A program made the position numbers and the translations under genes. The notes below the pieces were generated by a model, which did not search any database, had not been told where the DNA came from, and saw nothing but the letters and a program-made list of their open reading frames with translations. A DNA stretch of 64,000 nt from Deltaproteobacteria bacterium (GTDB lineage Bacteria; Myxococcota_A; Polyangia; Fen-1088): contig JANRKS010000031.1 in assembly GCA_033763315.1 (NCBI GenBank), forward strand, positions 96,001-160,000, given 5' to 3'. Below, one piece after another: positions 3,945 through 42,143 of this stretch (the stretch's first letter is position 1; each line of letters begins with the position of its first letter).

Positions 3945-5384
3945 TCACGGCCGCTTGCGCACTTGCAGAACCGCCATCATCCCGAGCTGGGCGTGATCCA
4001 GGATGTGACAGTGGAACATCCACATGCCGGGGCGGTCGTCGAAGGTCACCACGAAACGCAGCGTTTCGCCGGCGGGGACATTCACGCTGTCCTTAAGCTC
4101 GCGCACAGGCCACGGCTTGCCATCCAGATCCAAAATCTCGAAGGCGAAGCCGTGCAAGTGAAACGGATGGTCGTACTTGGTGCCGTTCACCACTTCCCAT
4201 GTCTCCGTGTCACCCACGTAGGCAAGGTGCATGGGCTCTGCATGGGCCTCGTGGTGCCCTTCTTCACCACCAAAGGTCTGGCCGTTGATCGTGAGGTAGC
4301 CGACTCCGTCGATCACCTTTTCCCCCAGCTCGATGCGGCGATGATGCGCGTTTGTCAGATCGCGCGCGGGCAACACTCGCAACGGATTGGGGAGCTTCAT
4401 CGGCGCCCCGCCGCCTTTGACCATCTGCAAATTGATAAGCGGTTCATCTGGGTGAATCGCGCCAATGCCAAATCGATTTGGATCCTGGTACATGACGGCA
4501 AAGCCTTCGGCAGCAGAGGCGGGCGGCGTGAAGATCACCTCGGCGCGTTCGGACGGTGCGAGCAGCAACGAATCGAGTGTCTGCGGGTGTTCCATCAACC
4601 CCACATCTGAACCCACGCGCACAAGTGGCGTGCCAGGCACTTTCATCTTCAGAAAGCGCGCCCGCGCTGCATTGATGATGCGCCAACGTTGTGGCAAGCC
4701 CACCCGCGCTTTGAGCCCCGGTTTCAGCTTGCCGTTGATCAGCAGCGCTGCGCCTTCGCGGCCGAAATAGTCCCCGAACCAGCCGCTTTCATCTCCCGCT
4801 TGCAGTTGGCCATCCTTCGTCAACGACATATCGCTGAACATCAGCACAACGTCATCAACGGCGAGCGGATCGGCGGGGTCATCCACCACCAAGGGACCAT
4901 AAAGACCGTAGCCCACTTGTGACGATGAATTCATGTGCGGGTGGTACCAAAAGGTGCCCGCGTCAGGCAACACGAAGTCGTATGTGAAAGACGCCCCCGG
5001 CATCACGGGGCTCTGCACGGCGTTTGACCCATCCATATCTGCCGTGATCTGAAGCCCATGCCAATGGACGGTTGTGGCTTCTGGCAGGTGGTTGGTGAAG
5101 TGAACGATCACACGATCGCCGCGCTTTGCGCGCAAAAGAGGGCCGGGAACGGAACCGTTATACGTCCACGTTTCGGTCTGCACGCCAGGCTTGATTTGCA
5201 CCATGCCCAAACGCGCGTCGAGGTTTACTTCCAGCACATTTGGATCGGGGTTCAGATCCTCGACGAGCGGCAAGGCCACATCTTGATCCCACGCTTCTGG
5301 TTGCGACACAGGCTCTGCGGGCGCTTCGCAACCAGCACTCAAGCAAACGCCCAGCGCAACGGTGATGATCCTGCCGGCCGTCAT
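3945..5384 (-). CDS. Three-domain multicopper oxidase, lipoprotein
   Basis: Copper motifs HWHG, WYHPH, HPFHLHG, HCHILDH..M; lipobox LSAGC; start trimmed to ATG 5384. Confidence 0.93.
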   Translation of the reverse strand: MTAGRIITVALGVCLSAGCEAPAEPVSQPEAWDQDVALPLVEDLNPDPNVLEVNLDARLGMVQIKPGVQTETWTYNGSVPGPLLRAKRGDRVIVHFTNHLPEATTVHWHGLQITADMDGSNAVQSPVMPGASFTYDFVLPDAGTFWYHPHMNSSSQVGYGLYGPLVVDDPADPLAVDDVVLMFSDMSLTKDGQLQAGDESGWFGDYFGREGAALLINGKLKPGLKARVGLPQRWRIINAARARFLKMKVPGTPLVRVGSDVGLMEHPQTLDSLLLAPSERAEVIFTPPASAAEGFAVMYQDPNRFGIGAIHPDEPLINLQMVKGGGAPMKLPNPLRVLPARDLTNAHHRRIELGEKVIDGVGYLTINGQTFGGEEGHHEAHAEPMHLAYVGDTETWEVVNGTKYDHPFHLHGFAFEILDLDGKPWPVRELKDSVNVPAGETLRFVVTFDDRPGMWMFHCHILDHAQLGMMAVLQVRKRP

Positions 5385-5442
5385 GGACTCACACTTTGGC
5401 CCGGAACCGCTGCTTGGCGAGGTTGCATACAGCAACACTCAT

Positions 5443-5458
5443 TGCAGCGCCCGTGCCA
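5443..5458 (-). promoter_or_regulatory. Sigma54 -24/-12 promoter of the multicopper oxidase gene
   Basis: Minus strand TGGCACGGGCGCTGCA, a near-perfect TGGCACG-N4-TTGCW with GG-N10-GC spacing. Confidence 0.75.
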
Positions 5459-7210: not shown

Positions 7211-7493
7211 TTTGTTCTCCCTCACAGAACGCAGACAACCCGTGACATTCCCCCCAACTCTGGACGGGACACTTGGCTGCTTCTGGACGATCGCCACCGT
7301 CACAAACCATGTTTTGCGCACGTTGCCTATGGTAACAGCGTCGGGCGACGGTTTTCACCAAAGTTGTCGATACAAGCTTTCAAGAGCTATTGCCAACAAG
7401 CTGAAATAGACAACCGGGGCTCCGACGGCTATCAAGGTAACTTCCTCCCGTCAAAGCCAGGCGCGCTAGGCGCTACCACCCGCACATGGAGAT

Positions 7494-7994
7494 TTGGTTG
7501 TGAGCACAAGCCCAGGGACAACAAGACATTCAGTCACCCGCAGCCATGATCGGCTGCAGGCCGCACTGACCTCGAAGCAGGCCTCGGCCAAGCCTGGATC
7601 GTGCAAGGCCGAGTGCGAAACACTGGGCGGCTCACTGTTCGTTGAAACCGGCGGTGTCAACGGTGGACTGCGAGCCGATTTTTACCAAGTGGACTCCAAG
7701 CATTACCACCTGCGAGTGGGCGATCAACTTGTTGACCCCACCGTTTACCAATTCTTCAACGTACCTGCAGGATTTCAGGGAAGCGTGTTGGCCGGGCCAA
7801 AGGATCGCTTTGTGTCCGCGTTGCGCGAGCTGCACGCGAAGTTCGGATACGCCCGCATCGTTGACACCAAGGTGCAGAACGTCGATCAGTTCTTTGAAGA
7901 GTATTGGGGCAAGGCCACGCTCTACAAAAGCGGCAACGAACTGTACGAACACGTTGGCAAGGCTACGGGGCGCGTTCGCGGCTATTACAAGTAG
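7494..7994 (+). CDS. Hypothetical protein, possibly an orphan or truncated papain/transglutaminase-like domain
   Basis: Coding-like composition; GSC...KHYHL...LVDPTVYQF pattern; weak TTG start with an in-frame TAG at 7467. Confidence 0.45.
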   Translation: MVVSTSPGTTRHSVTRSHDRLQAALTSKQASAKPGSCKAECETLGGSLFVETGGVNGGLRADFYQVDSKHYHLRVGDQLVDPTVYQFFNVPAGFQGSVLAGPKDRFVSALRELHAKFGYARIVDTKVQNVDQFFEEYWGKATLYKSGNELYEHVGKATGRVRGYYK

Positions 7995-8147
7995 CCCGCA
8001 CACCTGTAGGCGCTCAGAACCTGCGATCAAGGGCCTCATTCAGGGCGATGGGTAAGTTACGGGCATTTGGATCGGAATAGCTCGCCTGGGATGGCAAACC
8101 AGCCACAAAAAGCATGTTCGGCTTCGTGCATTGCTTCGCTTCAGACG

Positions 8148-8185
8148 GTGCATACATTTGCACCCCCTGGTGAAAGTTTTTGCAC
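8148..8185. promoter_or_regulatory. Tandem palindromic sites (GTGCAW-N4-TTGCAC), candidate EBP-binding enhancer
   Basis: GTGCATACATTTGCAC (8148-8163) and GTGAAAGTTTTTGCAC (8170-8185), 22 bp apart, upstream of the FHA-EBP operon. Confidence 0.5.
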
Positions 8186-8298
8186 ACCTTGCCCTCCTTA
8201 GGCGTCAATGGGAAACTTCACGGTCCCACACGAAACGCCGATGTGAGAAGGTGCATAGTGTGGGTTTCGGGGCTTCTGGTCGCACAAAATTTCTATCG

Positions 8299-9390
8299 AT
8301 GCGGCATTCCTTTCTATTTACGTTTGGGTTCATCGCCAGCTCTTTGAGTTCTCTCGCCGGCTGTTCGCTGAGCGTCGACGGCAGCGCGTATTCGACACCA
8401 GAGCAGGTGCCGTCCACCGGTTTGCGTTTCTTGTTGTTGGGCGGATCCCGCGCGGCGGCCACAGGGAATGAGGCAACATCAGATGTGTTGTGGCTGGCGC
8501 TGGATCCACAAGGGAACCCGCAAAGCGTGACTTCGGCCTTTGGCCTGCCGTCTGGTCGCGTCGAAGGCGTGCTACGCAACGGTGAACAACTGTTGGTATT
8601 GGGTTACAACACCGAAAAGCGGAGCTTCTTGGCCCGCGCTGAAAAGGCCGCGGGAAGCCTCGGTGCGTGGCTTGACGCTCCCGTGGCTGACCCTCCCCGC
8701 ACAAGCTCGGTCACCTTGCTCACGCATACGGCGGTGTTTCGGCTCAGTGGCAGCAGTGAGGTTCACGAAGCGCCGCAGACCGACGTTGCTGTGGCCACGC
8801 TGCAAACATCGCCCTTGGCAATCTCGGCCTGGACAACCTCCCCCACGAAATTGCGCACGCCGCGTTGGTCACCAAGCGCTCTGGAAGCCAATGGTTTCGT
8901 TTACGTTGTGGGGGGGCTAACGACACCCGAAAGCAACCCCACCGCACTGCCTGACGTTGAGTTCAGTAAACTCTCCAATGACAAGACGACGCTCGGTGAG
9001 TTTGTAACCACCAACAGCCTGCCCATGCCCTTGGCGGACGTCACTTTGGCGGCCACGCGAACCTATCTGCTGGCCCTGGGCGGGAAGCGCAAAGGTTTGA
9101 CGACGGAGTCGGTGGATACCATCTATGCGGCTGCCATCGATGCCACCTCTGGCGCCCTTGGCGTCTGGAAAGAGGTGGGGCGCTTGCCGCTGCCCGCGTC
9201 TGGGATTGGCGCGGGAGCAGCCGGCGATCGCTTGGTGCTTGTGGGTGGTAACCTCGAACAAGTTGATCGTTTCTCGCCTGATATTTACGTTGCCCGTGTT
9301 GGTGCAGACGGGATGTTGGGCGCATGGCAAACAAACAAAAGTGTTCAATTGCCAGGCGGCTACCAAGGCCAATTCGTTATTCCCTTTTAA
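8299..9390 (+). CDS. Kelch-repeat beta-propeller lipoprotein
   Basis: Lipobox LAGC; repeated hydrophobic-GG...W Kelch blades (LLLGG, YVVGG, LALGG, VLVGG); start ATG 8299. Confidence 0.8.
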   Translation: MRHSFLFTFGFIASSLSSLAGCSLSVDGSAYSTPEQVPSTGLRFLLLGGSRAAATGNEATSDVLWLALDPQGNPQSVTSAFGLPSGRVEGVLRNGEQLLVLGYNTEKRSFLARAEKAAGSLGAWLDAPVADPPRTSSVTLLTHTAVFRLSGSSEVHEAPQTDVAVATLQTSPLAISAWTTSPTKLRTPRWSPSALEANGFVYVVGGLTTPESNPTALPDVEFSKLSNDKTTLGEFVTTNSLPMPLADVTLAATRTYLLALGGKRKGLTTESVDTIYAAAIDATSGALGVWKEVGRLPLPASGIGAGAAGDRLVLVGGNLEQVDRFSPDIYVARVGADGMLGAWQTNKSVQLPGGYQGQFVIPF

Positions 9391-9405
9391 CCCGCACGCC
9401 ACCCT

Positions 9406-10779
9406 ATGAGTCACGATCCCAGCGTCGAAGAACTGGTAACGGAACGCGCCGAATCGGTTGAGGATGAACCAAGCGCCGCCGCGCAGGGCACGCGCGTGTT
9501 TTTGGTGGTCACTGATGGTGCCGATGCAGGCCGCGCCTATGAGCTGCCCGAAGGCAAAGAGATCACGATTGGGCGCACCAAGGATGCCACCATTTTCGTT
9601 GACGATCCCCGCGTGTCGCGGAAACACGCACGCATAAGCCGTCTTGGCGCGCTGTTGTTGGCTGAAGATCTTGGCAGCCGCAATGGCATTCGGGTGAACA
9701 ATGACGTCGTCGCCGGCGCTCAACGGCTGTTGCACGCAGGCGATCTCATTCGCGTGGGTTCGGCGCAACTGTCATTGGCGATCGTGGCGGCGGCGGGAGC
9801 GCCTCAGAAAGCCCTTGCGAAGACGCCCGGACCGCTGGCCCCCCCGGAGGGCTTGATTGTGGCCGATCCCGATATGAGGCGTGTGTTTCAGATCGTGCAG
9901 CGTCTCGGGCGCACCAACACAACGGTTTTGATTTTGGGCGAAACGGGCGTAGGCAAAGAAGTGGTGGCCGAACAGATCCACCGAGCCAGCGTTGCTTCGG
10001 GTGGCCCTTTCGTGCGGCTCAATTGTGCGTCGCTGCCCGAAAGTCTGTTAGAGGCAGAGCTGTTCGGGCACGAGCGCGGCGCTTTCACAGGGGCGGATCA
10101 GCGAAAGGTGGGTTACATCGAGGCGGCGAATGGCGGTACGCTTTTTCTTGATGAGGTGGCGGAGATGTCGCGCACCACGCAAGCCAAGTTGCTCCTCACA
10201 TTAGAGAATCGAACGATCGTGCGCCTGGGCGCAACCAAAGAGTTGCCTGTCAGTGTGCGGTTTGTGAGCGCCACCAACCGCGATTTGCGTAAAGACGTGG
10301 AGCAAGGACGTTTCAGGGAGGATCTCTACTATCGCCTTTCGGCTTTCACGTTGCAGATCCCACCGCTGCGCAAGCGGCCCACGGAAATCGCGTTGCTCGC
10401 GGATCTGTTCATTCGTGATTTCGCGGCACGCATGTCCGAGCCGCCCGCCCGCCTCACACCGGCGGCGGTGGCGGCGTTGCGCCAGTATGCGTGGCCGGGG
10501 AATGTGCGCGAGCTGCGCAACGCCATGGAGCATGCACTCGTGCTTGCCGAGGACGGCGTGATTGATGTGCCTCACCTGCCCATCCGCGACAACACCAGCA
10601 TGGCGGCGCCGGCGGCCAGCCTGCGAGACGATGTAGAAGACGCCGAAAAGCGGTCGATCGTCGAAGCGTTGGCTGCATGCGAAGGGCATCGTGCTCGGGC
10701 CGCACAGTTGCTGGGCATTTCCCGGCGCGCTCTCATGTACAAGCTTGCCAAATACGGTTTGTCGAAGGGCAACGGGTGA
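9406..10779 (+). CDS. FHA-domain sigma54-dependent enhancer-binding activator (FHA-AAA+-HTH)
   Basis: FHA IGR...VSRKHA...DLGSRNG; Walker A GETGVGKE; GAFTGA; LFLDE; WPGNVREL; Fis-type HTH. Confidence 0.95.
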   Translation: MSHDPSVEELVTERAESVEDEPSAAAQGTRVFLVVTDGADAGRAYELPEGKEITIGRTKDATIFVDDPRVSRKHARISRLGALLLAEDLGSRNGIRVNNDVVAGAQRLLHAGDLIRVGSAQLSLAIVAAAGAPQKALAKTPGPLAPPEGLIVADPDMRRVFQIVQRLGRTNTTVLILGETGVGKEVVAEQIHRASVASGGPFVRLNCASLPESLLEAELFGHERGAFTGADQRKVGYIEAANGGTLFLDEVAEMSRTTQAKLLLTLENRTIVRLGATKELPVSVRFVSATNRDLRKDVEQGRFREDLYYRLSAFTLQIPPLRKRPTEIALLADLFIRDFAARMSEPPARLTPAAVAALRQYAWPGNVRELRNAMEHALVLAEDGVIDVPHLPIRDNTSMAAPAASLRDDVEDAEKRSIVEALAACEGHRARAAQLLGISRRALMYKLAKYGLSKGNG

Positions 10780-12269
10780 CCACCACCGCGACCCCAAACA
10801 GTAACGACGCTGCCCGCGTGTTGGGGCGGTATGTGTTGCACAGCGAGATCGCGTCCGGCGGCATGGCCACGGTGCATTTTGGTCGGCTCATCGGGCCTGT
10901 GGGCTTCTCGCGGACGGTGGCGATCAAGCGCATGCATCCGCACCTGGCGCGCGATCCAGAACTGGTGGCTGCATTCTTGGATGAGGCCCGGCTCGCGGCG
11001 CGCATCAACCATCCCAACGTTGTGCAAACCCTAGATGTGGTGGCTACGGACGGTGAACTGTTTTTGGTGATGGATTATGTGCAGGGCGAATCTTTGTCAC
11101 GTTTGATGAAGCAGGCCCACGTCAGCGCCGCGTGGCCGCAGCTACGCATCACAAGTGCGATCATGATTGGCGCTTTGGCGGGCCTTCATGCCGCGCACGA
11201 GGCAAAAAGCGATCGCGGCGAGCGGCTGGGATTGGTTCACCGAGATGTGTCGCCGCAGAACATTCTTGTGGGTGCCGATGGCGTGCCGCGTGTGTTGGAC
11301 TTCGGTGTAGCGAAGGCCGCCGGGCGCGTGCAGCAAACGCGTGAGGGGGAGCTCAAGGGCAAGCTCCCCTACATGGCGCCGGAGCAGATCCGCGGCGAAC
11401 GGGTCGATCGGCGTACTGATGTGTTTGCCGCGGCGGTGGTGCTTTGGGAAGCGCTCACGGGGCAGCCTCTGTTTCGATCGTCGGAGCCAGGCGCTGCGTC
11501 CTACCTTGTGCTCACCAAAGAGCCCGAAGCACCCAGCCGACTCATGCCGCATCTGTCGGCGCAGCTCGACGCCGTGGTGTTGCGCGGTTTGGCCAAGGAG
11601 CGTGAGCGCCGTTTTCCCACCGCGCTTGAAATGGCGATGGCTTTAGAAGCCGCCGTCCCACCCGCCACGGCCATGGAGACGGGCGCGTGGGTACGGCATG
11701 TGGCCGGCCACGCGTTGGCCCACCGGGCAAGACTTGTGGCTGAGATCGAAAGCGGTGGCGCCACGCCTTTTGCCAGCGGTGAACCGGCGGCTGAAGGCAC
11801 AGAAGCCGTTACGCAAACCGAGGCGTCGGTGGCGACGATCGAAGCTTCGTCCTCGCTCTCAAGCGCCCCGGCACCCTTAAAAACAAGGCGCACGATTCAA
11901 GTCGCACTCGTCGCTGGCCTGGCGGCGTGTGTGGCCTTGCTGTTGTGGGCGGTGGTGCCGCGCTCATCAACGAGTGTTTCGCGCAACGTCGCTCCGGACC
12001 TGCAGAAAGAAGAGCCGGCCTCAACGCGCGCACCGGATCTTGCTTTACCTTCTGCGCCGCCACCACGCGAGGCACCACAGCCGCGGCCGGTAGAAGCGGC
12101 GGCAACGCCGAAACCCCGGCGTGCCACAAGGATCCCACCTCGACGTGCGGAGCTCCCTGCGCCCGTTGTGTCACCTGCCGCGCCACCTTTGAAAACCGTC
12201 AATTGTGAAAACCCCTTCGTGGTGGACAGCGACGGCACCAAACGCCCGCGACCGGAGTGCTTTCGATGA
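10776..12269 (+). CDS. Membrane Ser/Thr protein kinase (Hanks type)
   Basis: GGMATV, VAIK, HRDVSPQN, DFG, YMAPEQ; TM helix, Pro-rich tail, C-terminal C.NPF.VDSDG.KR.RPEC; GTGA overlap with the EBP stop. Confidence 0.92.
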   Translation: MTTTATPNSNDAARVLGRYVLHSEIASGGMATVHFGRLIGPVGFSRTVAIKRMHPHLARDPELVAAFLDEARLAARINHPNVVQTLDVVATDGELFLVMDYVQGESLSRLMKQAHVSAAWPQLRITSAIMIGALAGLHAAHEAKSDRGERLGLVHRDVSPQNILVGADGVPRVLDFGVAKAAGRVQQTREGELKGKLPYMAPEQIRGERVDRRTDVFAAAVVLWEALTGQPLFRSSEPGAASYLVLTKEPEAPSRLMPHLSAQLDAVVLRGLAKERERRFPTALEMAMALEAAVPPATAMETGAWVRHVAGHALAHRARLVAEIESGGATPFASGEPAAEGTEAVTQTEASVATIEASSSLSSAPAPLKTRRTIQVALVAGLAACVALLLWAVVPRSSTSVSRNVAPDLQKEEPASTRAPDLALPSAPPPREAPQPRPVEAAATPKPRRATRIPPRRAELPAPVVSPAAPPLKTVNCENPFVVDSDGTKRPRPECFR

Positions 12270-13057
12270 AGCGGCTGGCGTTCCTGGTGACCGTGGCTTA
12301 CGGTGTGGGGCTCACCGCGCGTGCACACGCACAAGACAAGGCGCGCGGCTGCATAGAGAACTACGAGACCGCGCAAGTGGCCCGCAAGCAGCGGCAGCTG
12401 GACCAGGCGCGCGCAGCGGCGATTGCCTGCGCCGCGCCCGAGTGTCCCACCGCCTTGGCGCGTGAGTGTGCAGGATGGATTGGCGAAATTGAGCAGACGC
12501 AACCGTCGGTTGTGATCGTGGCCGTGTCCGCAGGCCACGAGGTCACGGACGTTCACGTTTGGATTGATGACAAACTTGTCACGCAGCAATTAAACGGCAA
12601 CGCCATCGCAGTGGACCCAGGCCGTCGGCGTTTCGTGTTCGAGCGTGGCACGCAGAAACGACAGGTCGAGCTCGTGATTCGCGAAGGCGAAAAGAACCGG
12701 AAGCTGGAAGTGGATCTGGGTGCGGGCGTGCGGCGCATGCCGCTGGCCGGATGGGTTTTTGGCGGCGTCGCTTTGGCTGCCGGTGGCGCGGGTGCCTATT
12801 TTGAATGGCAAGGGCACAAAGCCCGCAACGCGCTCGATGACGCTGGTTGCGCGCCCAGGTGTGATGGCAAACAAGTGGATCACATGCTTAAGCAGTTTCA
12901 AAGAGGCGACATTCTTCTGGTGGGCGCCGGGGTCTCTGCCGTCGCCGCGCTGGTTTTGTATTTTACCGCCCCCGTTCCTGCACCTATCCCACGTCTGTCG
13001 TTGAACGCCACCACAGTGCCCGGTGGTGGCGCCTTCTGGCTGCAAGGAACGTTCTAA
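12266..13057 (+). CDS. Secreted PEGA-domain protein with Cys-containing helical N-terminus
   Basis: Signal peptide, CAAPECP motif, PEGA-like VWIDD...VDPGRRRF, hydrophobic C-terminal segments ending in LQGTF; ATGA overlap. Confidence 0.75.
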   Translation: MKRLAFLVTVAYGVGLTARAHAQDKARGCIENYETAQVARKQRQLDQARAAAIACAAPECPTALARECAGWIGEIEQTQPSVVIVAVSAGHEVTDVHVWIDDKLVTQQLNGNAIAVDPGRRRFVFERGTQKRQVELVIREGEKNRKLEVDLGAGVRRMPLAGWVFGGVALAAGGAGAYFEWQGHKARNALDDAGCAPRCDGKQVDHMLKQFQRGDILLVGAGVSAVAALVLYFTAPVPAPIPRLSLNATTVPGGGAFWLQGTF

Positions 13058-14319
13058 GGCAAGGCCTCTGCGTCACCTAGTTTCACAAGCGTTGGATCAG
13101 CGCTGAACGCGTATTCGGCCTTGATCCAAGCGTCCGAACGAGCGCGGGTTTGCAGGCGGACCTCATCGATCGCGCCGTGGAAATAATAGCAACAACCGTT
13201 GGCGTTGCTGCCGATCGAAGAGCTTTCTGCAACGAGGTCAGAATCGAACGCGGGCGCACCGTACTTCACGTCCTTCAGTGTGTCGGTCAGCACGCCGTTG
13301 CGGTAGAACTTGGCCACGCGGGCCGCCAAATCGCTCACCACCGCCACGTGTGTCCATTCGCCGACGTCAACGTCCATCGCCTCGTTGGCCACCGCCTCGC
13401 TGTCATACTGCCCAAGCTCGGTGTTGGGTATGGCGCGCGATTTGATGGCACCGCCGCGCGGGCCCCACCCCACCACGAGTTCAAGCGCGGGGTGCCCCGT
13501 GTTGCCGTCTTTGCGGCGATCCTGTCCGATCGCCAACAACCCCATATTGCCGCGCGCGTCGGTCAGTTTGATCCAGCTCGACACCGTGGTTGAAGCGACA
13601 CCCGACAACACCCTCATCTTCTCGGGTAGGCTAAATTGTTGCTGTTTGTCAGCATCTAACTGCAAACCCCTTCCGATCTTGCTGTCGCTATATGTGCCCG
13701 TAACCGTCGTTGCGTCTGCCTTCTGAGCCGACGAATCTTGCGGTCCAAAAAGGTGCCACACACCGGCGAAGGTTGCGTCCCACGTCTGCGCTTGCGCCTC
13801 ACGCGACGCCACCGTTGCTTCAGGGTTGCCGAAGTACATCCACAACTTCAGGACGGATCCGTGTGCGGGTATTTCAGGAGCTTTGACCCAAAACAGGAAG
13901 TCCTTGCTTGAATCTTCACGTTCAGCAGCCAGGAGATTTCCTTGCTCGCTCACGAAGCGCATGTCAGCCGCATCTTCACGCAGCTTGCTGCCAAACTTTG
14001 CCTTGGGCACCCGCACCAACAAAGGAAAATCCGCGAGCGAAGCATTTTGCGGCGGCGACACCTCCACGAGAGCACGAAATTTCCATTCTGGCTTCCACCA
14101 GCCACCCGCGTTTTCGGATGGCCGCGTGGATCCATCTTGGCTCTGAGCGCCTGTGTCGGGCGCCGCGGCCGCGTCTTTGGCCACATTGGCGTCTTCATCG
14201 TCGCTGCTGCCATCGCCACCTTGCCCGGCTGTGGCGCCGTTGTCCGAGTCATTCATCGCGGCAGGCGTGGCGGAGCATGTAAAACACGCCGCCACCGCGC
14301 ACAAAGCGAAGCTTCGCAT
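13054..14319 (-). CDS. DUF2341 + LamG/concanavalin-like domain lipoprotein
   Basis: WW..W..R, DFPLLV, DMRFV, FWVK.P, MYFGNP (DUF2341); WTHVAV, FHGAIDEVRL...RS..WI (LamG). Confidence 0.85.
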   Translation of the reverse strand: MRSFALCAVAACFTCSATPAAMNDSDNGATAGQGGDGSSDDEDANVAKDAAAAPDTGAQSQDGSTRPSENAGGWWKPEWKFRALVEVSPPQNASLADFPLLVRVPKAKFGSKLREDAADMRFVSEQGNLLAAEREDSSKDFLFWVKAPEIPAHGSVLKLWMYFGNPEATVASREAQAQTWDATFAGVWHLFGPQDSSAQKADATTVTGTYSDSKIGRGLQLDADKQQQFSLPEKMRVLSGVASTTVSSWIKLTDARGNMGLLAIGQDRRKDGNTGHPALELVVGWGPRGGAIKSRAIPNTELGQYDSEAVANEAMDVDVGEWTHVAVVSDLAARVAKFYRNGVLTDTLKDVKYGAPAFDSDLVAESSSIGSNANGCCYYFHGAIDEVRLQTRARSDAWIKAEYAFSADPTLVKLGDAEALP

Positions 14320-14320
14320 G

Positions 14321-15757
14321 TTAAGCCAGAAGCTCTTGGTTCATGCCACCGTTCATGTAATCAGGATCGCCGAAGCTCTTGAGGTCTAGGCCCATGCTCT
14401 TGGCCACGGTCACAAACAGATCGCCAAAGTTTTTGCCGATGTTGAATGGGTAATTGCTTTTGTTGGGATCGCGCTTGAACCTGACGTAACGGCCGCTTTT
14501 GATTTGCTTGTTGTGGTTGCCGAGCAGAACCGTGGGAATGTTGCCGTTGCAGTGCGCGTTGCCTTTTGACAGACCGTTGACCCACAACACCAAGGTGTTG
14601 TCGAGCGCCGTTCCGTCACCCTCCTTGATCGCATCAAGCCGCTGCACGAGATACGCCACCTGTTCGGCGTGCCACTTGCCGATCTTCACCATGCGTTCCA
14701 GATTCACCAGATCCGAATCATCGCCATGGCCGATTTCCGTGTGGTGCGGTTGCGTGATCCCCAGCCACGGATGCGTCAAGTTATTGCCTTCGTGACCAAT
14801 CTGCAAAGTGATCACGCGGCTTAGATCACAGGCCACCGCCATCGCGATTTGATCGATTTGCGCTTTGCAGATGACTGGTAAAGCCGCGTCCTGCTCTAGG
14901 TCCACCGCACCCACCTCAGGGGTCCCGCATTGCAATGAAGCCACGGGTGTCACGTTGTTGGGCAGATCTGTAAACTGCTTTTCAACGGCAGCAAGTGAAT
15001 CAAGGTGATGGTCAAACTTTTGTTGATCCCAGCTGCCCAGACGCGAACGGATCGCCTTCATCTGTTCCATGGCGCCGTTGAGTATGGAGCGCCGCCGTGC
15101 TCTCAACGTGGCGGCGGTGTCGGGGCCCGGTGTTGGCAGCGGCTTCGAGGTGCTTGCATTGCCGAAAAGGCGAGTGAACATCTTGCGCGGATCATTCTCG
15201 GCCGCCAAGCGGCGGTTCGGTGCACTCCACGAAAGCGTCCCGTAATTGATCTCTTGGTCGCCATTCAGCGCGCCGAACTGTAGCGAGGGGAACTTGGTTT
15301 GTGAGCCAATTTTTCCGGCCAAATATTGGTCGAAGCTTTGCCCATGGGAGCCTTCGTTTTCTGCCGGATCCATGTTGGTAAGCAACGAGCCATACCAAGA
15401 ATGCCCGCCCTTGCCCGAGCAGTTGTCGATGCCCTCCAGCACAAGCATCCTCTGCTTGAAATCCGCAAGCGGCATAAGAATGGGTGAAAGGGTGTGTTGG
15501 TTCGTATCGATGAATGAGTCACCAGAAGAATATTGGTCTGTGGCCTTGTAGTCAGCGGGAAATGTTTTTCCGCCGGGAGGCGTTGGCCAAAAACGCTCTG
15601 GGAACGTGCCGTTGCCAACCGCCACCACAATGAAACGCAGCGGCGCTGTGGCGGCCCACCCGGCGCGCGGTTGCATGGCCTCCAGTAAGGGCAGCGCGAT
15701 GGCTGAACCGGCGGCGCCGCGCAAAACAGTTCGTCTTGAAATTGTTTTAGACGTCAT
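14321..15757 (-). CDS. DUF1552 family protein with twin-arginine-like N-terminus
   Basis: SRRTVLRG, LPLLEAM, SFDQYLA, ENDPRKMF.RLF, ACDLSRV, EGDGTALDNT. Confidence 0.9.
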   Translation of the reverse strand: MTSKTISRRTVLRGAAGSAIALPLLEAMQPRAGWAATAPLRFIVVAVGNGTFPERFWPTPPGGKTFPADYKATDQYSSGDSFIDTNQHTLSPILMPLADFKQRMLVLEGIDNCSGKGGHSWYGSLLTNMDPAENEGSHGQSFDQYLAGKIGSQTKFPSLQFGALNGDQEINYGTLSWSAPNRRLAAENDPRKMFTRLFGNASTSKPLPTPGPDTAATLRARRRSILNGAMEQMKAIRSRLGSWDQQKFDHHLDSLAAVEKQFTDLPNNVTPVASLQCGTPEVGAVDLEQDAALPVICKAQIDQIAMAVACDLSRVITLQIGHEGNNLTHPWLGITQPHHTEIGHGDDSDLVNLERMVKIGKWHAEQVAYLVQRLDAIKEGDGTALDNTLVLWVNGLSKGNAHCNGNIPTVLLGNHNKQIKSGRYVRFKRDPNKSNYPFNIGKNFGDLFVTVAKSMGLDLKSFGDPDYMNGGMNQELLA

Positions 15758-15773
15758 GTGCCTGTTGCTTTCC

Positions 15774-17474
15774 TTAAAGGTCTTGTTGCGGAGCCAAAGT
15801 CATGAACGCGTCTGTTTGCGTAAGTGCCACCAACAATTGGGGCCACACACCTGCGCCCCCGTTCAAAGTGCCAGCAAGGTTTGCAATCGTCTTGGCATCG
15901 GCCTCGGTTTCACCGCGCCCCAGGGCGTATCGCAACCAGTGCTTGGCCACACACGCACGCACGTCTGCACTTTGCGCCAGCGATTGCATGAACGGCCGAA
16001 CCCCATCGAACTCGCCCGTGACCGGTCCTTCTTCAATCTTCGTCGTCGCATCAACCGGTTTTCCTGCGTCTTGCGTGCGAATGCGTCCGACGGCGTCGAA
16101 ACCCTCGAAGGCAAAACCAAGCGGGTCCATCAATTTGTGACAACCGGAACAACTGGGGTCGTTTGTGTGGGCCGCCATGCGCTCGCGGGTGCTGCGGGTT
16201 GTGCTGACAGGCACAGGCGTGTTGTTCACCGCCGGTGGGGGCGGCGGCACCGTGCCGCACAGGATTCGTTCAAGCACAAACTTGCCACGCAAAGTGGGCG
16301 AGGTTTGGTTGTTGTGAGCCGCGAAGGTGAGCCACGCGCCACGGGTCAGGATTCCCGGGCGGCTCATGGTCAAATCGACGGCAGCGAACTCATCGGTCGT
16401 GACGGCTTGCTTCAGATCGTAAAAGGTGGCCAACGTCGCATCCGCGAAGGATGTGCTGCTGAGAAACAGGTCCTGGAACGTAGAATCGCCATTTGAGAAC
16501 AAAGACTGCACAAACAGGTCTGACTCGCGCTTCATTCGTTCTGCGATGTTGGGTGAAAATGTCGAGAACGTCTTGGTGTCTTTGGTGACTTGCGGGCTCA
16601 ACGAGCCGTAGCGCAGCCATTGACCGTGAAAATTGCGGACCATATCCATGGTGCGTTTGTCCTTCACCATGCGGTTCGCCTGCGCCTGCACCTGGGCCGC
16701 CGTCTTCAATTGGTCTTGGGCCGCGGCCTTGAGCAGCTCATCGTCGGGCGTGGTTCCCCACAGGAAGAACGACAACCGTGACGCCATCTCGTAGCTTGTC
16801 GGCCTCCGTTTGCCGTCGCTTGTGGCTTCACCAACCTCGATGCGGTAGAGGAAGGGGGCTGAGATCAACATTGTTGTGAGCACGGCTTCCATGCCGCTGT
16901 CAAACGCGGCTCCGTCACGCGCGCGTTCGTCTTTGTAGATTGTGACGAGGCGTGTTTCGTCTGCCGTGGTCACCGGCGAACGCCAAAGCTTCGCGCCGAA
17001 GCTCTGCACGAACGTACGCACGCACGCTTCGTCCTTCTGAGCCGCAAGACAGCTCACCTGCGCCGCGAGCTTCGGCAGGGCGGCCTTGGCCAGCGTCTCC
17101 GCCGCGTAAAGGTATTGCTCAGCCAACAGGGGCGGCACGGTCAAAGCCGCCGCGTTGTTGGAAAAGCCAAGCGCCGATTCTTCCGCCGTGAAGCGCAGCG
17201 CCGGATTTGACGTGTCGCCAAGCAGGTCACGAACCACGTTGTTGTACTCGAACTTGTTGAGCCTACGAATCACGGCTGCGCTCAACTGCGACTCAACATG
17301 GCCTTGTTCTGGCGCGTTGCCCCCCTTGCCCGCGCTGCCCAAGCCAACTGTGCCGCCGGCTCCCCCCGTCTCGTCGGGAGGTTTGTTGCCGCTCGGCACC
17401 ACGGCCCCGGTGCACGCGGAAAACAGCAAGAGGCCCCCAAACAAACCCTTCTGAACAACGCTTTTGGTGAGCAC
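15774..17474 (-). CDS. DUF1592 family (DUF1587/1595/1592/1588/1585) lipoprotein with CxxCH motif
   Basis: RRLNKFEYNNVVRDLL, SAPFLYRIE, EMASRLSFFLW, TSPTLRG, CSGCHKLMDPLG; lipobox FSAC; start set at GTG 17474. Confidence 0.9.
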   Translation of the reverse strand: MLTKSVVQKGLFGGLLLFSACTGAVVPSGNKPPDETGGAGGTVGLGSAGKGGNAPEQGHVESQLSAAVIRRLNKFEYNNVVRDLLGDTSNPALRFTAEESALGFSNNAAALTVPPLLAEQYLYAAETLAKAALPKLAAQVSCLAAQKDEACVRTFVQSFGAKLWRSPVTTADETRLVTIYKDERARDGAAFDSGMEAVLTTMLISAPFLYRIEVGEATSDGKRRPTSYEMASRLSFFLWGTTPDDELLKAAAQDQLKTAAQVQAQANRMVKDKRTMDMVRNFHGQWLRYGSLSPQVTKDTKTFSTFSPNIAERMKRESDLFVQSLFSNGDSTFQDLFLSSTSFADATLATFYDLKQAVTTDEFAAVDLTMSRPGILTRGAWLTFAAHNNQTSPTLRGKFVLERILCGTVPPPPPAVNNTPVPVSTTRSTRERMAAHTNDPSCSGCHKLMDPLGFAFEGFDAVGRIRTQDAGKPVDATTKIEEGPVTGEFDGVRPFMQSLAQSADVRACVAKHWLRYALGRGETEADAKTIANLAGTLNGGAGVWPQLLVALTQTDAFMTLAPQQDL

Positions 17475-17486
17475 GTCGATGGCAGG

Positions 17487-17503
17487 TTGCAAATGCCATT
17501 CCG
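17487..17503 (-). promoter_or_regulatory. Candidate sigma54 promoter of the leftward DUF1592 operon
   Basis: Minus strand CGGAATGGCATTTGCAA: GG-N10-GC with TTGCA. Confidence 0.5.
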
Positions 17504-17553
17504 CGCGCCGAACGGCATCTTTGCAGGGGTTCAACGACGTGGCGGATGCATAA

Positions 17554-17592
17554 CGACCAAAGTTTGCACCGGTGCAGTGCAAGACTTTGCAC
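17554..17592. promoter_or_regulatory. Palindromic enhancer-like site plus half-site between the divergent promoters
   Basis: Perfect inverted repeat GTGCAA-GACT-TTGCAC (17577-17592), preceded 23 bp earlier by a site ending TTTGCAC (17569). Confidence 0.55.
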
Positions 17593-17632
17593 TTTCAACG
17601 GGAAAGGGCAAGCGGATCGTGCCCTTGTGTCC

Positions 17633-17648
17633 TGGCATAGCAACTGCA
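17633..17648 (+). promoter_or_regulatory. Sigma54 promoter of the rightward DUF1592 operon
   Basis: TGGCATAGCAACTGCA, GG-N10-GC. Confidence 0.65.
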
Positions 17649-17661
17649 CTAAAGCCTTGAC

Positions 17662-19365
17662 GTGGACGCTTACAAAATCCGGTTGTCGTTGATCCTGAGC
17701 TGTTGTGGAATCATCGCGGGTTGCAGTGGGCAAGTGAGTTCGCGAGACAGCCCCGGCTCTGATGACGACGACCCCAGATCTCCGTTGGGTGGCGGCGGCG
17801 CCAATGGCGGCGCGGGCAACGCCGGCAATACGACCACGCCCGCCGCCTGTGGCTTTGCGCCCGTGCGGTTGTGGAAACTAACCCCCACGCAGTACGCAAA
17901 CACGGTCAAGCAGCTGATGCCAGAGGCGTCGGTGCCGCTTGCGGATCTGAAGAAAACATCCGTGACTGTGGGCGCGTTCAGCAATGATTCGCGCTCAGTC
18001 GACGTATCGCAGCCTCACGTCGAGACCCTACTCGCCAGTGCCACGGCTTTAGCCACACAGATATTGCCTCAGGCAAGTAAGGTGGCGTCTTGCCTCGCCA
18101 CGAAGCCGGCCACCGAGGCTTGTTTGCGTACCACGCTCACAACCTTTGGCGCTCAGGCTTTTCGCAGGCCACTGACGTCGACTGAGATGGACGCTTACGT
18201 CAACTTCTACAAGAAGGAGAGCGCAAGCGGAGGGAACGACGTTGGCCTCAAGCAATTCTTTCGCGCTCTGTTTATCTCGCCCCATTTTCTTTACCGCACT
18301 GAGCTTGGTGATGAGACGCAGGCCAGCGGCGGAAAGACGACGCTGACGGCTTACGAACGCGCGTCGGCTCTGGCGTATTTTCTCACCGATGGTCCGCCGG
18401 ACCAGGCGCTCAGCGACGCGGCCGCGAAGAAGAAGCTTGAAAGCGCGGCTGACCTGGAATTGCAAGCGCGGCGGCTTTTGCAAACGCCTGAGGGGAAAAG
18501 GGGGCTCGTGAAATTTGTTGCCGAGCAAATGCGCGCCGACGATGTGCGCACGGCCAACAAAGACGCGTCGCTTACGGCATGGTCGTCGGAACTTGCTTCC
18601 GACTTGGCCAATGAAACGAGTTTGTTCCTGGAACACGAACTCTTCGCGGGCGGCGGAAAGCTCGTAGATCTGTTGACCAGCAAGACATCGTTCGTCAACG
18701 AACGCGTGGCCAAACATTATGGCGTCTCCGGCGTAACTGGCTCCAACTTCAAGCAAGTCACGTTGCCCGAAGCCCGCCAGGGCCTGTTAGGCAAGGCCAG
18801 CTTCTTAGCGGCACGGGCGCAGCCCAATGAAACGTCGATTGTCAAACGTGGTCGCTTTGTCCGGGAACACTTGCTTTGCCAATCGATTCCCTCTGCACCG
18901 CCGGAGCTGGCCAACGTCGCGATCCCGCCCAAGCCTGACGGGGTTCACACCCAACGTGAACGCATAGATGAACACTCAAAGAATCCCGTTTGCGAAGGTT
19001 GCCACAAATTCATGGACCCGATCGGTTTTGCCTTTGAAGAATTCGATACCCTCGGTCAGTGGCGCAGCAAAGGCGTGACAGGAAAATCGATCCCCACGGA
19101 CGGCGTTGTGTTCAGCAACACAGACACACCCGACCGTTCATTTGCGAACTTGGCGGCTTTGAATACAACGCTTGCCGACTTGCCAGAAACACGAAGCTGC
19201 TTTGCTCAGCAGATGTTCTTGTACGCCCAAGGCCGCGAGCCCGACGCTGCGGATAAGTGCACGTTGGTCGAGCTCACAGACGCGTTCACCAAGAGCGGAG
19301 GCGACATAAAGGAGCTTGCCGTGAAGATGGTGACATCCGAAACCTTCGTGACCCGAATCAAGTGA
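17662..19365 (+). CDS. DUF1592 family lipoprotein with CxxCH motif
   Basis: Lipobox IAGC, LT..QY.NTV, AFRRPL, SPHFLYRTE, TSIVKRG, CEGCHKFMDPIG. Confidence 0.9.
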   Translation: MDAYKIRLSLILSCCGIIAGCSGQVSSRDSPGSDDDDPRSPLGGGGANGGAGNAGNTTTPAACGFAPVRLWKLTPTQYANTVKQLMPEASVPLADLKKTSVTVGAFSNDSRSVDVSQPHVETLLASATALATQILPQASKVASCLATKPATEACLRTTLTTFGAQAFRRPLTSTEMDAYVNFYKKESASGGNDVGLKQFFRALFISPHFLYRTELGDETQASGGKTTLTAYERASALAYFLTDGPPDQALSDAAAKKKLESAADLELQARRLLQTPEGKRGLVKFVAEQMRADDVRTANKDASLTAWSSELASDLANETSLFLEHELFAGGGKLVDLLTSKTSFVNERVAKHYGVSGVTGSNFKQVTLPEARQGLLGKASFLAARAQPNETSIVKRGRFVREHLLCQSIPSAPPELANVAIPPKPDGVHTQRERIDEHSKNPVCEGCHKFMDPIGFAFEEFDTLGQWRSKGVTGKSIPTDGVVFSNTDTPDRSFANLAALNTTLADLPETRSCFAQQMFLYAQGREPDAADKCTLVELTDAFTKSGGDIKELAVKMVTSETFVTRIK

Positions 19366-19376
19366 AAGAGGACATC

Positions 19377-20642
19377 ATGCCGTTTGTTAGCCGTCGATCT
19401 TTACTTCGTGGTCTTGCCTTGGGCGCCAGCACGTCTATGTTCCGGCCCTTGTTGAAGGAGTTCATCCGCGAAGCCCGCGGCGAGGCAGGCCCCGCCAAGC
19501 GTTTGGCCTTTGTGTTCGGACAGTACTCGTTTCCACGCAAGTACATGGATCCCAAGATCCGCACCGCAACCGATTTCGACCTGAACCCAGCCACATCACC
19601 CTTGGCACCCTTCAAATCGGAACTCACGCTGATCCGCAACCTGGGGGCGCCGCAAGGCCCCGGAGCCAATGGGGGCCACGGCCAAGACGAAGGCGTTTAC
19701 CTTGGCCTCGGCACGCAGTTCGGGTGGACAGGATCAGATTGGGCCACCAACGTTGGCAAAGACGGAACCATTGATCGCTTCATCGGCAAGCGCATCGGCG
19801 CGAGCGATAAATTCTCATCGCTTTCGTTCCGGCCCGGCGGCCGACCCTTGTTGCCCGTTGATTACACAAGCTGGGATGGCGATGACCAACCTTATCCAGC
19901 CTTTGCAACGCCGCTTGATGCGTATGACAAGATTTTTGGCGGCGCGATGTTGCCGCCAGGTGCGCCGCCGGTGGACACCACGGCGCTGTTAAAACAGGAT
20001 CAATCTTTGCTCGACTTTACAGTGGGCGAGATCAAGGTTCTGGAAAGCCGATTGGCGGCGCCTGAGAAGGAGAAGCTGGGTAAGTTCACCGAGTCCCTGC
20101 GCGCGGTTGAAAAGAAGCTAACGGCGGTGGCTATGGCTCCCGTGGTTTCGTGCGAGAACCCCGCCAAGCCTGCGGCCACGCTGGCGCGGCAACAAGCGGT
20201 GGAGGCGCAGGTTGACATCGCGGCCATGGCGTTGGCGTGTGGCCTTTCGCATGTTTCAGCAATGAATGTGGGCCCCGACAACCACGACGCCAACCATGAA
20301 GACGCGCCTTCCGTAGGCACGGACAACACCTGGCGCTTACAACAAACGGCGAAGCTCTTTGGCAAGCTCAAGGAGCTGGGGCTCGGCGATTCATCGCTGG
20401 TGCTATACAGCGACTCGAACGGGCTCGATCACCACGGCGGCCGCGATCAAGGCTATTTCTATTGGGTCCTGGGCGGCTTAGGGGGGCGGCTGAAAACGGG
20501 TCGCATCTTGGATTTGCCTGCCTCGCGTCCCTACCTGGGCGATTTCTACGTGTCGTTGGCCAATCTGATGGGCTTGCAAGACGTCTCCCGCTTCGGCCTG
20601 CCAGAGCTCTCGAAAGGCGCCTTAACGGCGTTCTCTGGTTAA
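19377..20642 (+). CDS. DUF1552 family protein with twin-arginine-like N-terminus
   Basis: GAGGA RBS; SRRSLLRG, TIDRFIG, SLLDF, ALACGLSHV, LKTGR. Confidence 0.88.
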   Translation: MPFVSRRSLLRGLALGASTSMFRPLLKEFIREARGEAGPAKRLAFVFGQYSFPRKYMDPKIRTATDFDLNPATSPLAPFKSELTLIRNLGAPQGPGANGGHGQDEGVYLGLGTQFGWTGSDWATNVGKDGTIDRFIGKRIGASDKFSSLSFRPGGRPLLPVDYTSWDGDDQPYPAFATPLDAYDKIFGGAMLPPGAPPVDTTALLKQDQSLLDFTVGEIKVLESRLAAPEKEKLGKFTESLRAVEKKLTAVAMAPVVSCENPAKPAATLARQQAVEAQVDIAAMALACGLSHVSAMNVGPDNHDANHEDAPSVGTDNTWRLQQTAKLFGKLKELGLGDSSLVLYSDSNGLDHHGGRDQGYFYWVLGGLGGRLKTGRILDLPASRPYLGDFYVSLANLMGLQDVSRFGLPELSKGALTAFSG

Positions 20643-28365: not shown

Positions 28366-28729
28366 CCTTGATGTCGGTCTGGCAAACCTGCAAAGAAGCT
28401 GAGCTTCGGGTCGAACCCCGCCCGTCTCACTAAAGAGGCCCGCAGAATCAACGATCGCTCTTGAACTGAGGTGTTCCTGTAGAACGGACAATTGCATCAA
28501 AACGAGCGCCGATGCGTAGTCCGTCTTCGAACGAGCCATCGAAAGCGCCCATGGCGACAAGAGTTGTCTGGACTGCAACTCTACCCATTGTGCCGCGCGG
28601 CGCAGCGACGGTGGGAATCCTGACGAAGAGCGCTTGAACCTTAGGCATTAAGGCCGCCGCATTCTCGGCCAGCGCCGAGCGGACGCCGCATTCATTGTGG
28701 TCGACCTTCCAGAGCCATTGGCAGAGTAG

Positions 28730-28801
28730 TAGGCGGGACAGGGATTGAACCTGCGACCCGGTGCTTGTAAGGCACCCGCTCTGCCGCTGAGCTACCCGCC
28801 T
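28730..28801 (-). tRNA. tRNA-Val (TAC anticodon)
   Basis: AGGCGGG/CCCGCCT acceptor stem, TAGCTCAGCGGCAGAGC D-arm, GGTGC-CTTACAA-GCACC anticodon arm, GGTTCAATCC T-loop; followed by CTA rather than CCA. Confidence 0.95.
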
Positions 28802-28940
28802 GAGTACGGGCCTAATTTACTCATTTTGGGCGCGGGGTAAAGGGCCGGGTGAAAGTTTTGTGGACGCTGGGGCAAAAGCCTGCAGAAACGGGGCGACGAG
28901 GGTTGTTCATGCTGCTCAGTGGCAGTGATGCCTTTAGATG

Positions 28941-42043: not shown

Positions 42044-42143
42044 GGCACGCATTGTTTCAGCCGGCACGCCTCCAGGTCAACTTCGGGTCAACATTTGCAA
42101 TCGGTGCCAGGTCCACCCCTGGGGCTGCTATGGTTTTGGGCTT

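Follow-up and report, generated by a model that had tools for sequence, protein, structure and literature searches.

Our analysis of a 64,000-nucleotide stretch of DNA from a Deltaproteobacteria bacterium (the window, G000:C31:96001-160000, whose coordinates are used below unless a contig is named; the genome comprises 7.63 Mb in 40 contigs, with 60.6% G+C) identified a candidate operator, the palindrome GTGCAA-N4-TTGCAC, which lies in tandem upstream of a regulatory cassette and again between two divergent operons. The cassette encodes a Kelch lipoprotein, a sigma-54 activator with an FHA domain, a Hanks-type Ser/Thr kinase and a 'PEGA-like' membrane protein, and each of the divergent operons encodes a DUF1592/PSCyt3 lipoprotein and a DUF1552 protein. 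To judge from their sequence and arrangement, the dyads are in all likelihood real cis-elements. In the reading towards which we cautiously lean, they would be enhancer sites of the FHA-type activator (9406-10779), which would drive both DUF1592 operons under the control of the kinase.

The first-pass annotation had reported the palindrome at 8148, 8170 and 17577 and a half-site at 17554, with 22-23 bp between the members of each pair, and all of these sites were found as claimed:

8148-8163 (no strand): dyad A, GTGCATACATTTGCAC, one mismatch; centre 143.5 bp before the ATG at 8299
8170-8185 (no strand): dyad B, GTGAAAGTTTTTGCAC, one mismatch; 22 bp from dyad A, centre 121.5 bp before the ATG at 8299
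17554-17569 (no strand): dyad A', right half (TTTGCAC) only; overlaps an abutting palindrome at 17565-17576
17577-17592 (no strand): dyad B', GTGCAAGACTTTGCAC, perfect GTGCAA-N4-TTGCAC, with 7-nt arms AGTGCAA/TTGCACT

The centre-to-centre spacing is 22 bp in the cassette pair and 23 bp in the 17.5-kb pair, or about two helical turns. The right half, TTTGCAC, is present in all four sites and the left half is variable; the dyad format can also be read as GTGCA-N6-TGCAC, again with the right half best kept. At most one mismatch being allowed, the window holds three sites against 0.41 expected, a number reached in one of 100 shuffles, and with up to two mismatches it holds six against 5.97 expected, so that there is no enrichment at this level. 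The whole genome has 48 sites with at most one mismatch, about the chance rate, and the palindrome is thus not the motif of a global regulator. The genome-wide scan that the first-pass annotation had proposed, to look for enrichment near sigma-54 promoters, thus shows no overall enrichment; the tandem arrangement is nevertheless rare, and the site at 17577 is flanked by sigma-54 matches.

The genome and two-mismatch counts, together with the fact that the motif was picked after looking, are what one would cite in favour of a chance coincidence, in which a short palindrome simply recurs three times in AT-richer intergenic DNA. Such a coincidence is hard to reconcile with the 305 bp upstream of the cassette, where 0.0019 hits are expected and the probability of at least two is about 2e-6 (the motif being defined by 17577). 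It is equally hard to reconcile with an empirical control, in which each of the 3185 perfect 6-N4-6 palindromes of the genome was asked for a tandem pair (no more than 60 bp apart) of copies with at most one mismatch within 12 kb: only three have one, two of them being GC-only low-complexity sequences and the third GTGCAA-N4-TTGCAC. The spacing, moreover, matches at the two loci (22 and 23 bp), and the 17.5-kb sites lie midway between two promoters. We consider the chance explanation barely credible.

The genome has three places at which TTTGCAC is repeated directly at a distance of 22-24 bp, and two of these are the cassette upstream region and the 17.5-kb locus. The third (24 bp apart, 42364-42393, minus strand) lies inside the open reading frame (ORF) 42030-42839, is devoid of left arms and is probably due to chance. 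The sole further perfect copy of GTGCAA-N4-TTGCAC in the genome likewise lies inside an ORF. A degenerate pair at 28849/28870, said to precede another sigma-54 candidate, did not survive scrutiny: its members have at least three mismatches and fall outside the list of sites with up to two, no sigma-54 match of at least 11 bits accompanies them, and they adjoin a tRNA-Val gene (28729-28801). That the dyads might be RNA hairpins or terminators was also considered and rejected, their stems being of at most 5 bp with mismatches and without a T-run after them; the terminator scan returned one site only, unrelated to the dyads.

Some further symmetry is apparent around the 17.5-kb dyads. An abutting 12-bp palindrome, TGCACC/GGTGCA at 17565-17576, joins the half-site at 17564 to the perfect dyad, giving four GTGCA/TGCAC words within 28 bp, and it resembles NtrC half-sites. 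The stretch from the dyads to the -24 element on the plus strand contains an inverted repeat, AAGGGCA-N9-TGCCCTT (17604-17626), which is not significant alone and might serve a bending protein or a further regulator.

Sigma-54 promoters were sought with a matrix that approximates the published consensus, and its scores are accordingly approximate. The genome has rpoN (PF04552 match at C6:193006-193479, 219.3 bits), and two of the six matches of at least 11 bits in the window flank the 17.5-kb dyads:

17488-17503 (minus strand): predicted sigma-54 promoter, CGGAATGGCATTTGCA, 12.4 bits; -12 C at 17489
17633-17648 (plus strand): predicted sigma-54 promoter, TGGCATAGCAACTGCA, 15.4 bits; -12 C at 17647

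In both of these divergent promoters the -12 C lies exactly 15 nt ahead of the GTG that opens the lipoprotein signal peptide, and the predicted transcript starts, 17659 (plus) and 17477 (minus), leave a leader of about 3 nt. Since the predicted starts are 3 nt before the start codon, both DUF1592 transcripts would be practically leaderless. Among the 639 genome matches of at least 12 bits, a start codon follows the -12 C by 14-18 nt in 96, with a peak (30 cases at 14 nt and 18 at 15 nt) that stands above the neighbouring offsets and compares with 1-5 cases in the antisense control. The presence of this 14-15 nt peak across the genome and its absence from the antisense control suggest that the spacing marks real promoters. 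A literature search on leaderless transcripts, sigma-54 and enhancers gave none on topic by title among the matches listed, and neither FHA nor leaderless transcripts come up in a 2025 survey of sigma-54 regulons.

Relative to the plus-strand start, the centres of dyads B' and A' lie at -74.5 and -97.5, and relative to the minus-strand start those of A' and B' lie at -84.5 and -107.5. A single candidate enhancer would thus sit midway between two back-to-back promoters, at 75-108 bp, which is an ordinary enhancer distance. The earlier proposal that the dyads in the DUF1592 intergenic region lie at enhancer distance from sigma-54 promoters is borne out by the two divergent promoters placed here, and from this geometry we conclude with good confidence that the dyads are the predicted enhancer of both of them.

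The cassette and the two DUF1592-DUF1552 operons are made up of the following genes:

8299-9390 (plus strand): Kelch-type six-blade beta-propeller lipoprotein by model fold; likely ATG at 8299, lipobox LAGC, a TTG at 8131 being disfavoured
9406-10779 (plus strand): sigma-54 activator with FHA, AAA+ (GAFTGA at residue 225) and HTH_8 domains, by Pfam and motifs
10776-12269 (plus strand): Hanks-type Ser/Thr kinase with one membrane helix; the GTG start overlaps the TGA stop of the activator gene
12266-13057 (plus strand): 'PEGA-like' membrane protein with a signal peptide; the ATG overlaps the kinase stop
13054-14319 (minus strand): LamG/DUF2341 protein by Pfam, final gene of the minus-strand operon
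14321-15757 (minus strand): DUF1552 protein by Pfam and motif, Tat (twin-arginine translocation) motif SRRTV
15774-17474 (minus strand): DUF1592/PSCyt3 lipoprotein with one CxxCH; predicted GTG start at 17474
17662-19365 (plus strand): DUF1592/PSCyt3 lipoprotein with one CxxCH; GTG start at 17662
19377-20642 (plus strand): DUF1552 protein, Tat motif SRRSL; likely ATG at 19377 behind AAGAGG

The plus-strand cassette operon (Kelch lipoprotein, FHA-type activator, kinase, PEGA-like protein) is converged upon by the minus-strand operon (DUF1592, DUF1552, LamG/DUF2341), from which the second plus-strand operon (DUF1592, DUF1552) diverges. The labels FHA-AAA-HTH_8, Pkinase, DUF1592 and DUF1552 that these genes had been given from the sequence were all matched by Pfam. 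In both DUF1592-DUF1552 pairs PF07631, PF07627, PF07626, PF07637, PF07624 and PF07586 score above their cut-offs, the exception being PF07626, which in the plus-strand protein reaches 23.1 against 23. A lipobox and a single CxxCH are present in both DUF1592 proteins, and a twin-arginine motif in both DUF1552 proteins.

The activator is complete, with intact FHA, Walker A and B, GAFTGA and HTH_8 motifs. Pfam scores are 52.4 bits for FHA (PF00498; cut-off 20.7), 222.5 for Sigma54_activat (cut-off 20.2) and 53.7 for HTH_8 (cut-off 22; residues 410-450), and the AAA+ motifs comprise Walker A GETGVGKE at 178, GAFTGA at 225 and Walker B LFLDE at 246. The G-R, S-x-x-H and N-G positions of an FHA domain serve phosphothreonine binding, and all are intact here (GR56, SRKH71-74, NG93). 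Among the best 25 of 38 matching NCBIfam models, the activator falls below every cut-off (PEP_resp_reg, 329 against 502.6; ntrC, 279.6 against 558.6), so that none of these models identifies it as an orthologue of a named activator (NtrC, AtoC, NifA, ZraR, PspF and others), and the ntrC score argues that it is not an NtrC orthologue. Its best public match is in a metagenome-assembled genome of the Polyangiales, and its top non-self matches are 49-52% identical.

The suggested pairing of kinase and FHA-type activator also finds support, the kinase having all catalytic motifs and its start overlapping the activator stop. It scores 115.9 bits for Pkinase (cut-off 31.7), and K51, H155 R156 D157, N162, D175 F176 G177, T188 and P202 E203 are invariant in eight of eight aligned sequences. 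We favour this co-operonic kinase as the controller because of FHA biology and because a Hanks-type kinase match lies within 3 kb of 11 of the 15 FHA-type activator loci in the genome; on these grounds, control of the activator by the kinase through the FHA domain is a prediction that we would on balance back.

In the circuit as we propose it, dimers of the FHA activator would bind the dyads at 17554-17592 on one helix face, assemble into a ring and open both divergent promoters, thereby switching on two operons that would each supply a haem-motif DUF1592/PSCyt3 lipoprotein and a Tat-exported DUF1552 protein, one of them adding a lectin-fold protein. The state of the activator would be set by the membrane kinase, a phosphothreonine on either the kinase or the activator being read by the FHA domain, and the sensing side would consist of the outer tail of the kinase, the PEGA-like membrane protein and the Kelch propeller lipoprotein. 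The available part of a study of the Myxococcus xanthus activator PexR describes how sigma-54 activators, bound as dimers to dyad enhancers, form rings and thereby remodel the closed complex (PMC12754779).

A second cassette of the same composition (Kelch, FHA-activator, kinase, PEGA-like) lies on contig C27 (G000:C27:58300-67150, locus L103), its activator being 49% identical to that of the window. Its own palindrome, CTGTGCA-N4-TGCACAG, occurs at C27:60012 and 64975, the only two copies in the genome, one between the cassette and a divergent DUF1592-DUF1552 pair and the other just past the cassette, before the gene of a haem-motif lipoprotein. A sigma-54 match (12.4 bits in one case, 14.2 bits in the other) follows each copy after some 70 bp, and the palindrome centres fall at about -88 and -95 relative to the predicted starts; an additional half-site, (C/G)GCACAG, is found 18-19 bp off each copy, and both promoters lie just before start codons. 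In the orthologous cassette of a sister species (genome G002, of the same genus), the 18-mer and half-site are kept beside a 14.3-bit promoter (L102:10993), in flanks that have diverged. As a matter of layout, the C27 cassette offers independent support for a rule of the form 'cassette activator, local dyad, flanking sigma-54 promoters'.

A number of observations weigh against the proposed circuit. The genome has about 50 sigma-54 activator loci, any other of which could own the dyads, and sequence cannot assign a site to a protein because many of these activators have almost identical recognition-helix regions (GISRRAL.YKL). The dyads might thus be real and yet be owned by another regulator, either one of the roughly 49 other activator loci or a non-activator helix-turn-helix protein, and the pair at 8148/8170, with no sigma-54 promoter adjoining it, is unexpected for an activator site and would suit such an owner. 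Set against this, the only two places in the genome with the tandem arrangement flank the cassette within 9.4 kb, the pattern recurs at the paralogous cassette with a palindrome specific to that locus, and activators commonly bind before their own genes, PexR for one being enriched at its own promoter according to the portion of the study available (PMC12754779). We regard ownership by another regulator as rather unlikely, and binding of the dyads by the cassette's activator (9406-10779) as fairly likely from the sequence context.

The second difficulty is the promoter of the cassette operon itself. The interval 8186-8298 is empty of sigma-54 matches at a 4-bit threshold and has no GG-N10-GC frame, 7990-8320 at the same threshold gives a single match at 8092 (4.6 bits), upstream of the dyads, and a sigma-70 scan of 7400-8400 found no sigma-70-type promoter. 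The expectation that the tandem palindromes at 8148/8170 would lie 80-150 bp from a sigma-54 promoter has to be abandoned, and since the cassette lacks any such promoter, these sites are more likely autoregulatory by another mode. The activator would then act on its own cassette at a housekeeping-type promoter, with down-regulation as the likeliest mode by analogy with PexR, which, in the same portion of that study, acts positively on sigma-54 promoters and negatively on a sigma-A promoter (PMC12754779). On this analogy, we see the case for and against autoregulation of the cassette by the 8148/8170 pair as evenly poised.

Alternatively, the 8148/8170 pair could be the enhancer of a non-canonical sigma-54 promoter of the cassette that was missed by the matrix, which would imply positive autoregulation. 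Its position 121-143 bp before the ATG is enhancer-like, and each dyad reads GG-N11-GC, one base off sigma-54 spacing; these features are offset by the lack of a single 16-mer reaching 4 bits, or of the GG-N10-GC frame, between dyads and ATG, and by the C27 cassette, which also has no match of at least 10 bits on the Kelch-gene strand. We find such a missed promoter improbable and retain autoregulation at a housekeeping-type promoter as the better account of the pair.

The genome-wide comparisons are similarly unfavourable to a general link. Only one of the 48 genome sites with at most one mismatch, 17577, has a sigma-54 match of at least 11 bits within 100 bp (one per side), two more having a single match each at +139 or +196, and the motif as a genome-wide sigma-54 enhancer was rejected on this count. 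With 119 DUF1592 loci and about 100 DUF1552 matches in the genome, eight of 50 activator loci lie within 6 kb of DUF1592, where random placement would give 9.4. Among the 15 loci of FHA-type activators, six do so against 2.8 expected at 6 kb (p 0.04), and three against 1.9 at 3 kb. Nearness to DUF1592 is not evidence in itself, given 119 loci and counts at or near chance, and gene neighbourhood as an argument for the activator-DUF1592 link was rejected after this permutation test. A sigma-54 match of at least 12 bits precedes 10 of the 119 DUF1592 loci in sense against six in antisense, and at 10 bits or more the counts are 22 against 15, so a general sigma-54 dependence of DUF1592 genes was rejected as well.

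Conservation adds further points on the same side. The C27 palindrome shares GTGCA with that of the window, but its halves are 2 bp closer, which makes it a related operator and not the same one. No orthologue of the window cassette was found, none of 88 other family genomes giving more than 28% identity to the Kelch protein (at E no higher than 1e-20 this protein has matches in two of 89 genomes, one of which is the source genome itself), and five Kelch-protein loci in metagenome contigs are 26-31% identical and not orthologous. The dyads cannot be footprinted because neither the family genomes nor the metagenome contigs offer an orthologous locus. The approximate nature of the promoter scores, and start codons that are predictions throughout, should be counted here too.

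The two outer proteins of the cassette are less readily named than its activator and kinase. The Kelch label, which falls below the Pfam cut-off (21.9 bits against 50), holds by fold: the model (predicted local distance difference test score, pLDDT, 78.5; predicted template-modelling score, pTM, 0.80) matches the Kelch domains of KLHL12 and Keap1 at an E of about 1e-14 (template-modelling scores 0.65/0.80), Kelch families are found in three of three non-self homologues, and the protein is confirmed, at the level of its modelled fold, as a six-blade propeller. The PEGA label does not hold, the protein having no PEGA (PF08308) match in Pfam even at E up to 5. Among 55 homologues, one has PF08308 and three have PF13620. 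Its model, a confident one (pLDDT 89.8), has a Cys-rich domain of three helices, a beta-sandwich, a membrane hairpin of helices and, at the end, a beta-hairpin; the sandwich gave only weak matches, to transthyretin-like domains and to carboxypeptidase regulatory domains (E 3e-3 to 1e-2; the best, 6hif_Y, at 9e-6). 'PEGA-like' is thus a loose label, in view of the absent Pfam match, the single homologue with PF08308 and the weak sandwich match. This unnamed family has eight invariant residues, C29, C55, C60, C68, P118, G119, C195 and C199, six of which are Cys.

The kinase ends, beyond its membrane helix, in a C-terminal Cys-bracketed peptide outside the cytoplasm (C-E/D-x-P-aromatic ... G-x-R/K ... 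C-F/L), which is common to paralogues and relatives. The genome has four kinases with such a tail, that of the window included, and a PEGA-like gene comes next in all four, with a Kelch gene beside two of them. Their tails lie at:

window 12203-12269
C21:45547-45609
C27:64043-64105
C29:112265-112327

That kinase tail, PEGA-like protein and Kelch propeller together form a sensor is speculative.

Other loci in this genome and its relatives recall parts of this arrangement. An FHA-type activator locus at C5:280208-281380 is flanked by two copies of TGGCAC-N-GTGCCA (C5:278639 and 285458), one of them some 98 bp upstream of a sigma-54 match (15.6 bits) at C5:278737, and its sequence suggests the same logic served by another operator. 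At C29:110349-110397, a tandem CTTGC(A)-N3/4-(T)GCAAG lies about 500 bp before the kinase gene of an FHA-activator/kinase/PEGA-like locus. A third cassette, in genome G014 (locus L105), stands beside a DUF1592 gene with a sigma-54 match and was dropped, no shared palindrome being seen; the best matches to this DUF1592 gene in G104 and G019 are 44-45% and not orthologous. The strongest sigma-54 match of the window, TGGCACGGGCGCTGCA (16.0 bits, 5443-5458, minus strand), lies just before a multicopper oxidase gene (3945-5438, minus strand) whose product has three Cu-oxidase Pfam domains; no GTGCAA-type dyad was found at enhancer distance from it, a two-mismatch copy at 5790 falling within the beta-helix gene upstream. 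The core CTCGTT-N4-AACGAG recurs every 72-75 bp or so in two repeat arrays, of 17 and 21 units (C3:54921-56113 and C6:286092-287563), which look like CRISPR (clustered regularly interspaced short palindromic repeats) arrays.

The type of circuit proposed here, with an activator, a dyad enhancer and a -24/-12 promoter, is textbook; what is new is a concrete candidate operator, two promoters with a shared enhancer and a link to DUF1592-DUF1552 pairs. At glnAp2 of enteric bacteria, NtrC occupies tandem dyads some 100 bp ahead of a -24/-12 promoter, all on one face of the helix, and it has binding sites near its own operon as well. Its receiver domain, phosphorylated by a histidine kinase, sets it apart from the activator of the window. 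Closer in kind are the activators with FHA, AAA+ and helix-turn-helix domains that Jelsbak, Givskov & Kaiser reportedly described in 2005 in Myxococcus xanthus, an organism rich in Hanks-type kinases, for which control by Ser/Thr phosphorylation is said to have been proposed; an operator, cognate kinase or target operon of such an activator was reportedly not defined there. In the window, by contrast, kinase and activator are linked by translational coupling, and positions can be given for candidate operators and promoters. To our knowledge, the coupling of Ser/Thr phosphorylation to a sigma-54 activator by an FHA domain was proposed for Myxococcus and never worked out.

In its dyads, the proposed circuit most resembles that of PexR, likewise a Myxococcota sigma-54 activator, which, as far as the available part of the paper goes, binds tandem 5-N6-5 dyads (CACCG-n6-CGGTG), in some of which a single half alone is well preserved (PMC12754779). 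PexR is described there as sensing peroxide through a metal-binding GAF domain, whereas the activator of the window has an FHA domain and a co-operonic Ser/Thr kinase; the half-site also differs, as do the targets, which here would be DUF1592-DUF1552 operons with one enhancer for two divergent promoters (PMC12754779). On the sensing side, a functional analogue may be found in the threonine phosphorylation pathway of type VI secretion, which, in the part of the report available, comprises the membrane kinase PpkA, the periplasmic RtkS contacting its outer part and the FHA reader Fha, a layout of membrane kinase, outer protein and FHA reader that the window shares (PMC6082577). There is a weak structural match (E 3e-3) between the PEGA-like beta-sandwich and chains of the RtkS-PpkA crystal structure 9k1u, which shows no sequence relationship. 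Unlike in the window, the output of that pathway is the assembly of a secretion machine and not transcription, according to the same part of the report (PMC6082577).

The pairs that would be under the control of this circuit were noted in Planctomycetes and Verrucomicrobia as PSCyt3/PSD plus DUF1552 pairs, and the available part of a 2017 genomic study states their function as wholly unknown (PMC5615132). As described there, the pairs consist, like those of the window, of a protein with DUF1592, DUF1588, DUF1587, DUF1595, DUF1585 and one CxxCH, followed by a DUF1552 protein; what sets the window apart from that description is a Polyangiales-like host with 119 copies, and candidate sigma-54 promoters and an enhancer placed for two of them (PMC5615132). 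A literature search returned neither DUF1592 nor DUF1552 in a title or abstract among the matches listed.

Planctomycetes, Verrucomicrobia and some myxobacteria have DUF1592/PSCyt3-DUF1552 pairs in abundance, and the candidate circuit makes the induction of such pairs testable: the signal that induces the cassette should give a lead to the substrate or stress with which the DUF1592-DUF1552 proteins deal. The locus is at the same time a compact case for studying how an FHA domain may couple Ser/Thr phosphorylation to a sigma-54 activator. It is possible, though we hold it to be a tentative and at present doubtful idea, that the four-protein cassette is a dedicated envelope sensor which induces particular haem-lipoprotein/DUF1552 members from a shared enhancer and divergent leaderless sigma-54 promoters. 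If this were true, DUF1592-DUF1552 pairs would be inducible, substrate-specific modules with a logic comparable to that of polysaccharide-utilisation loci with their own sensors, and the regulator, operator and inducing condition would provide a first experimental handle on these function-unknown families.

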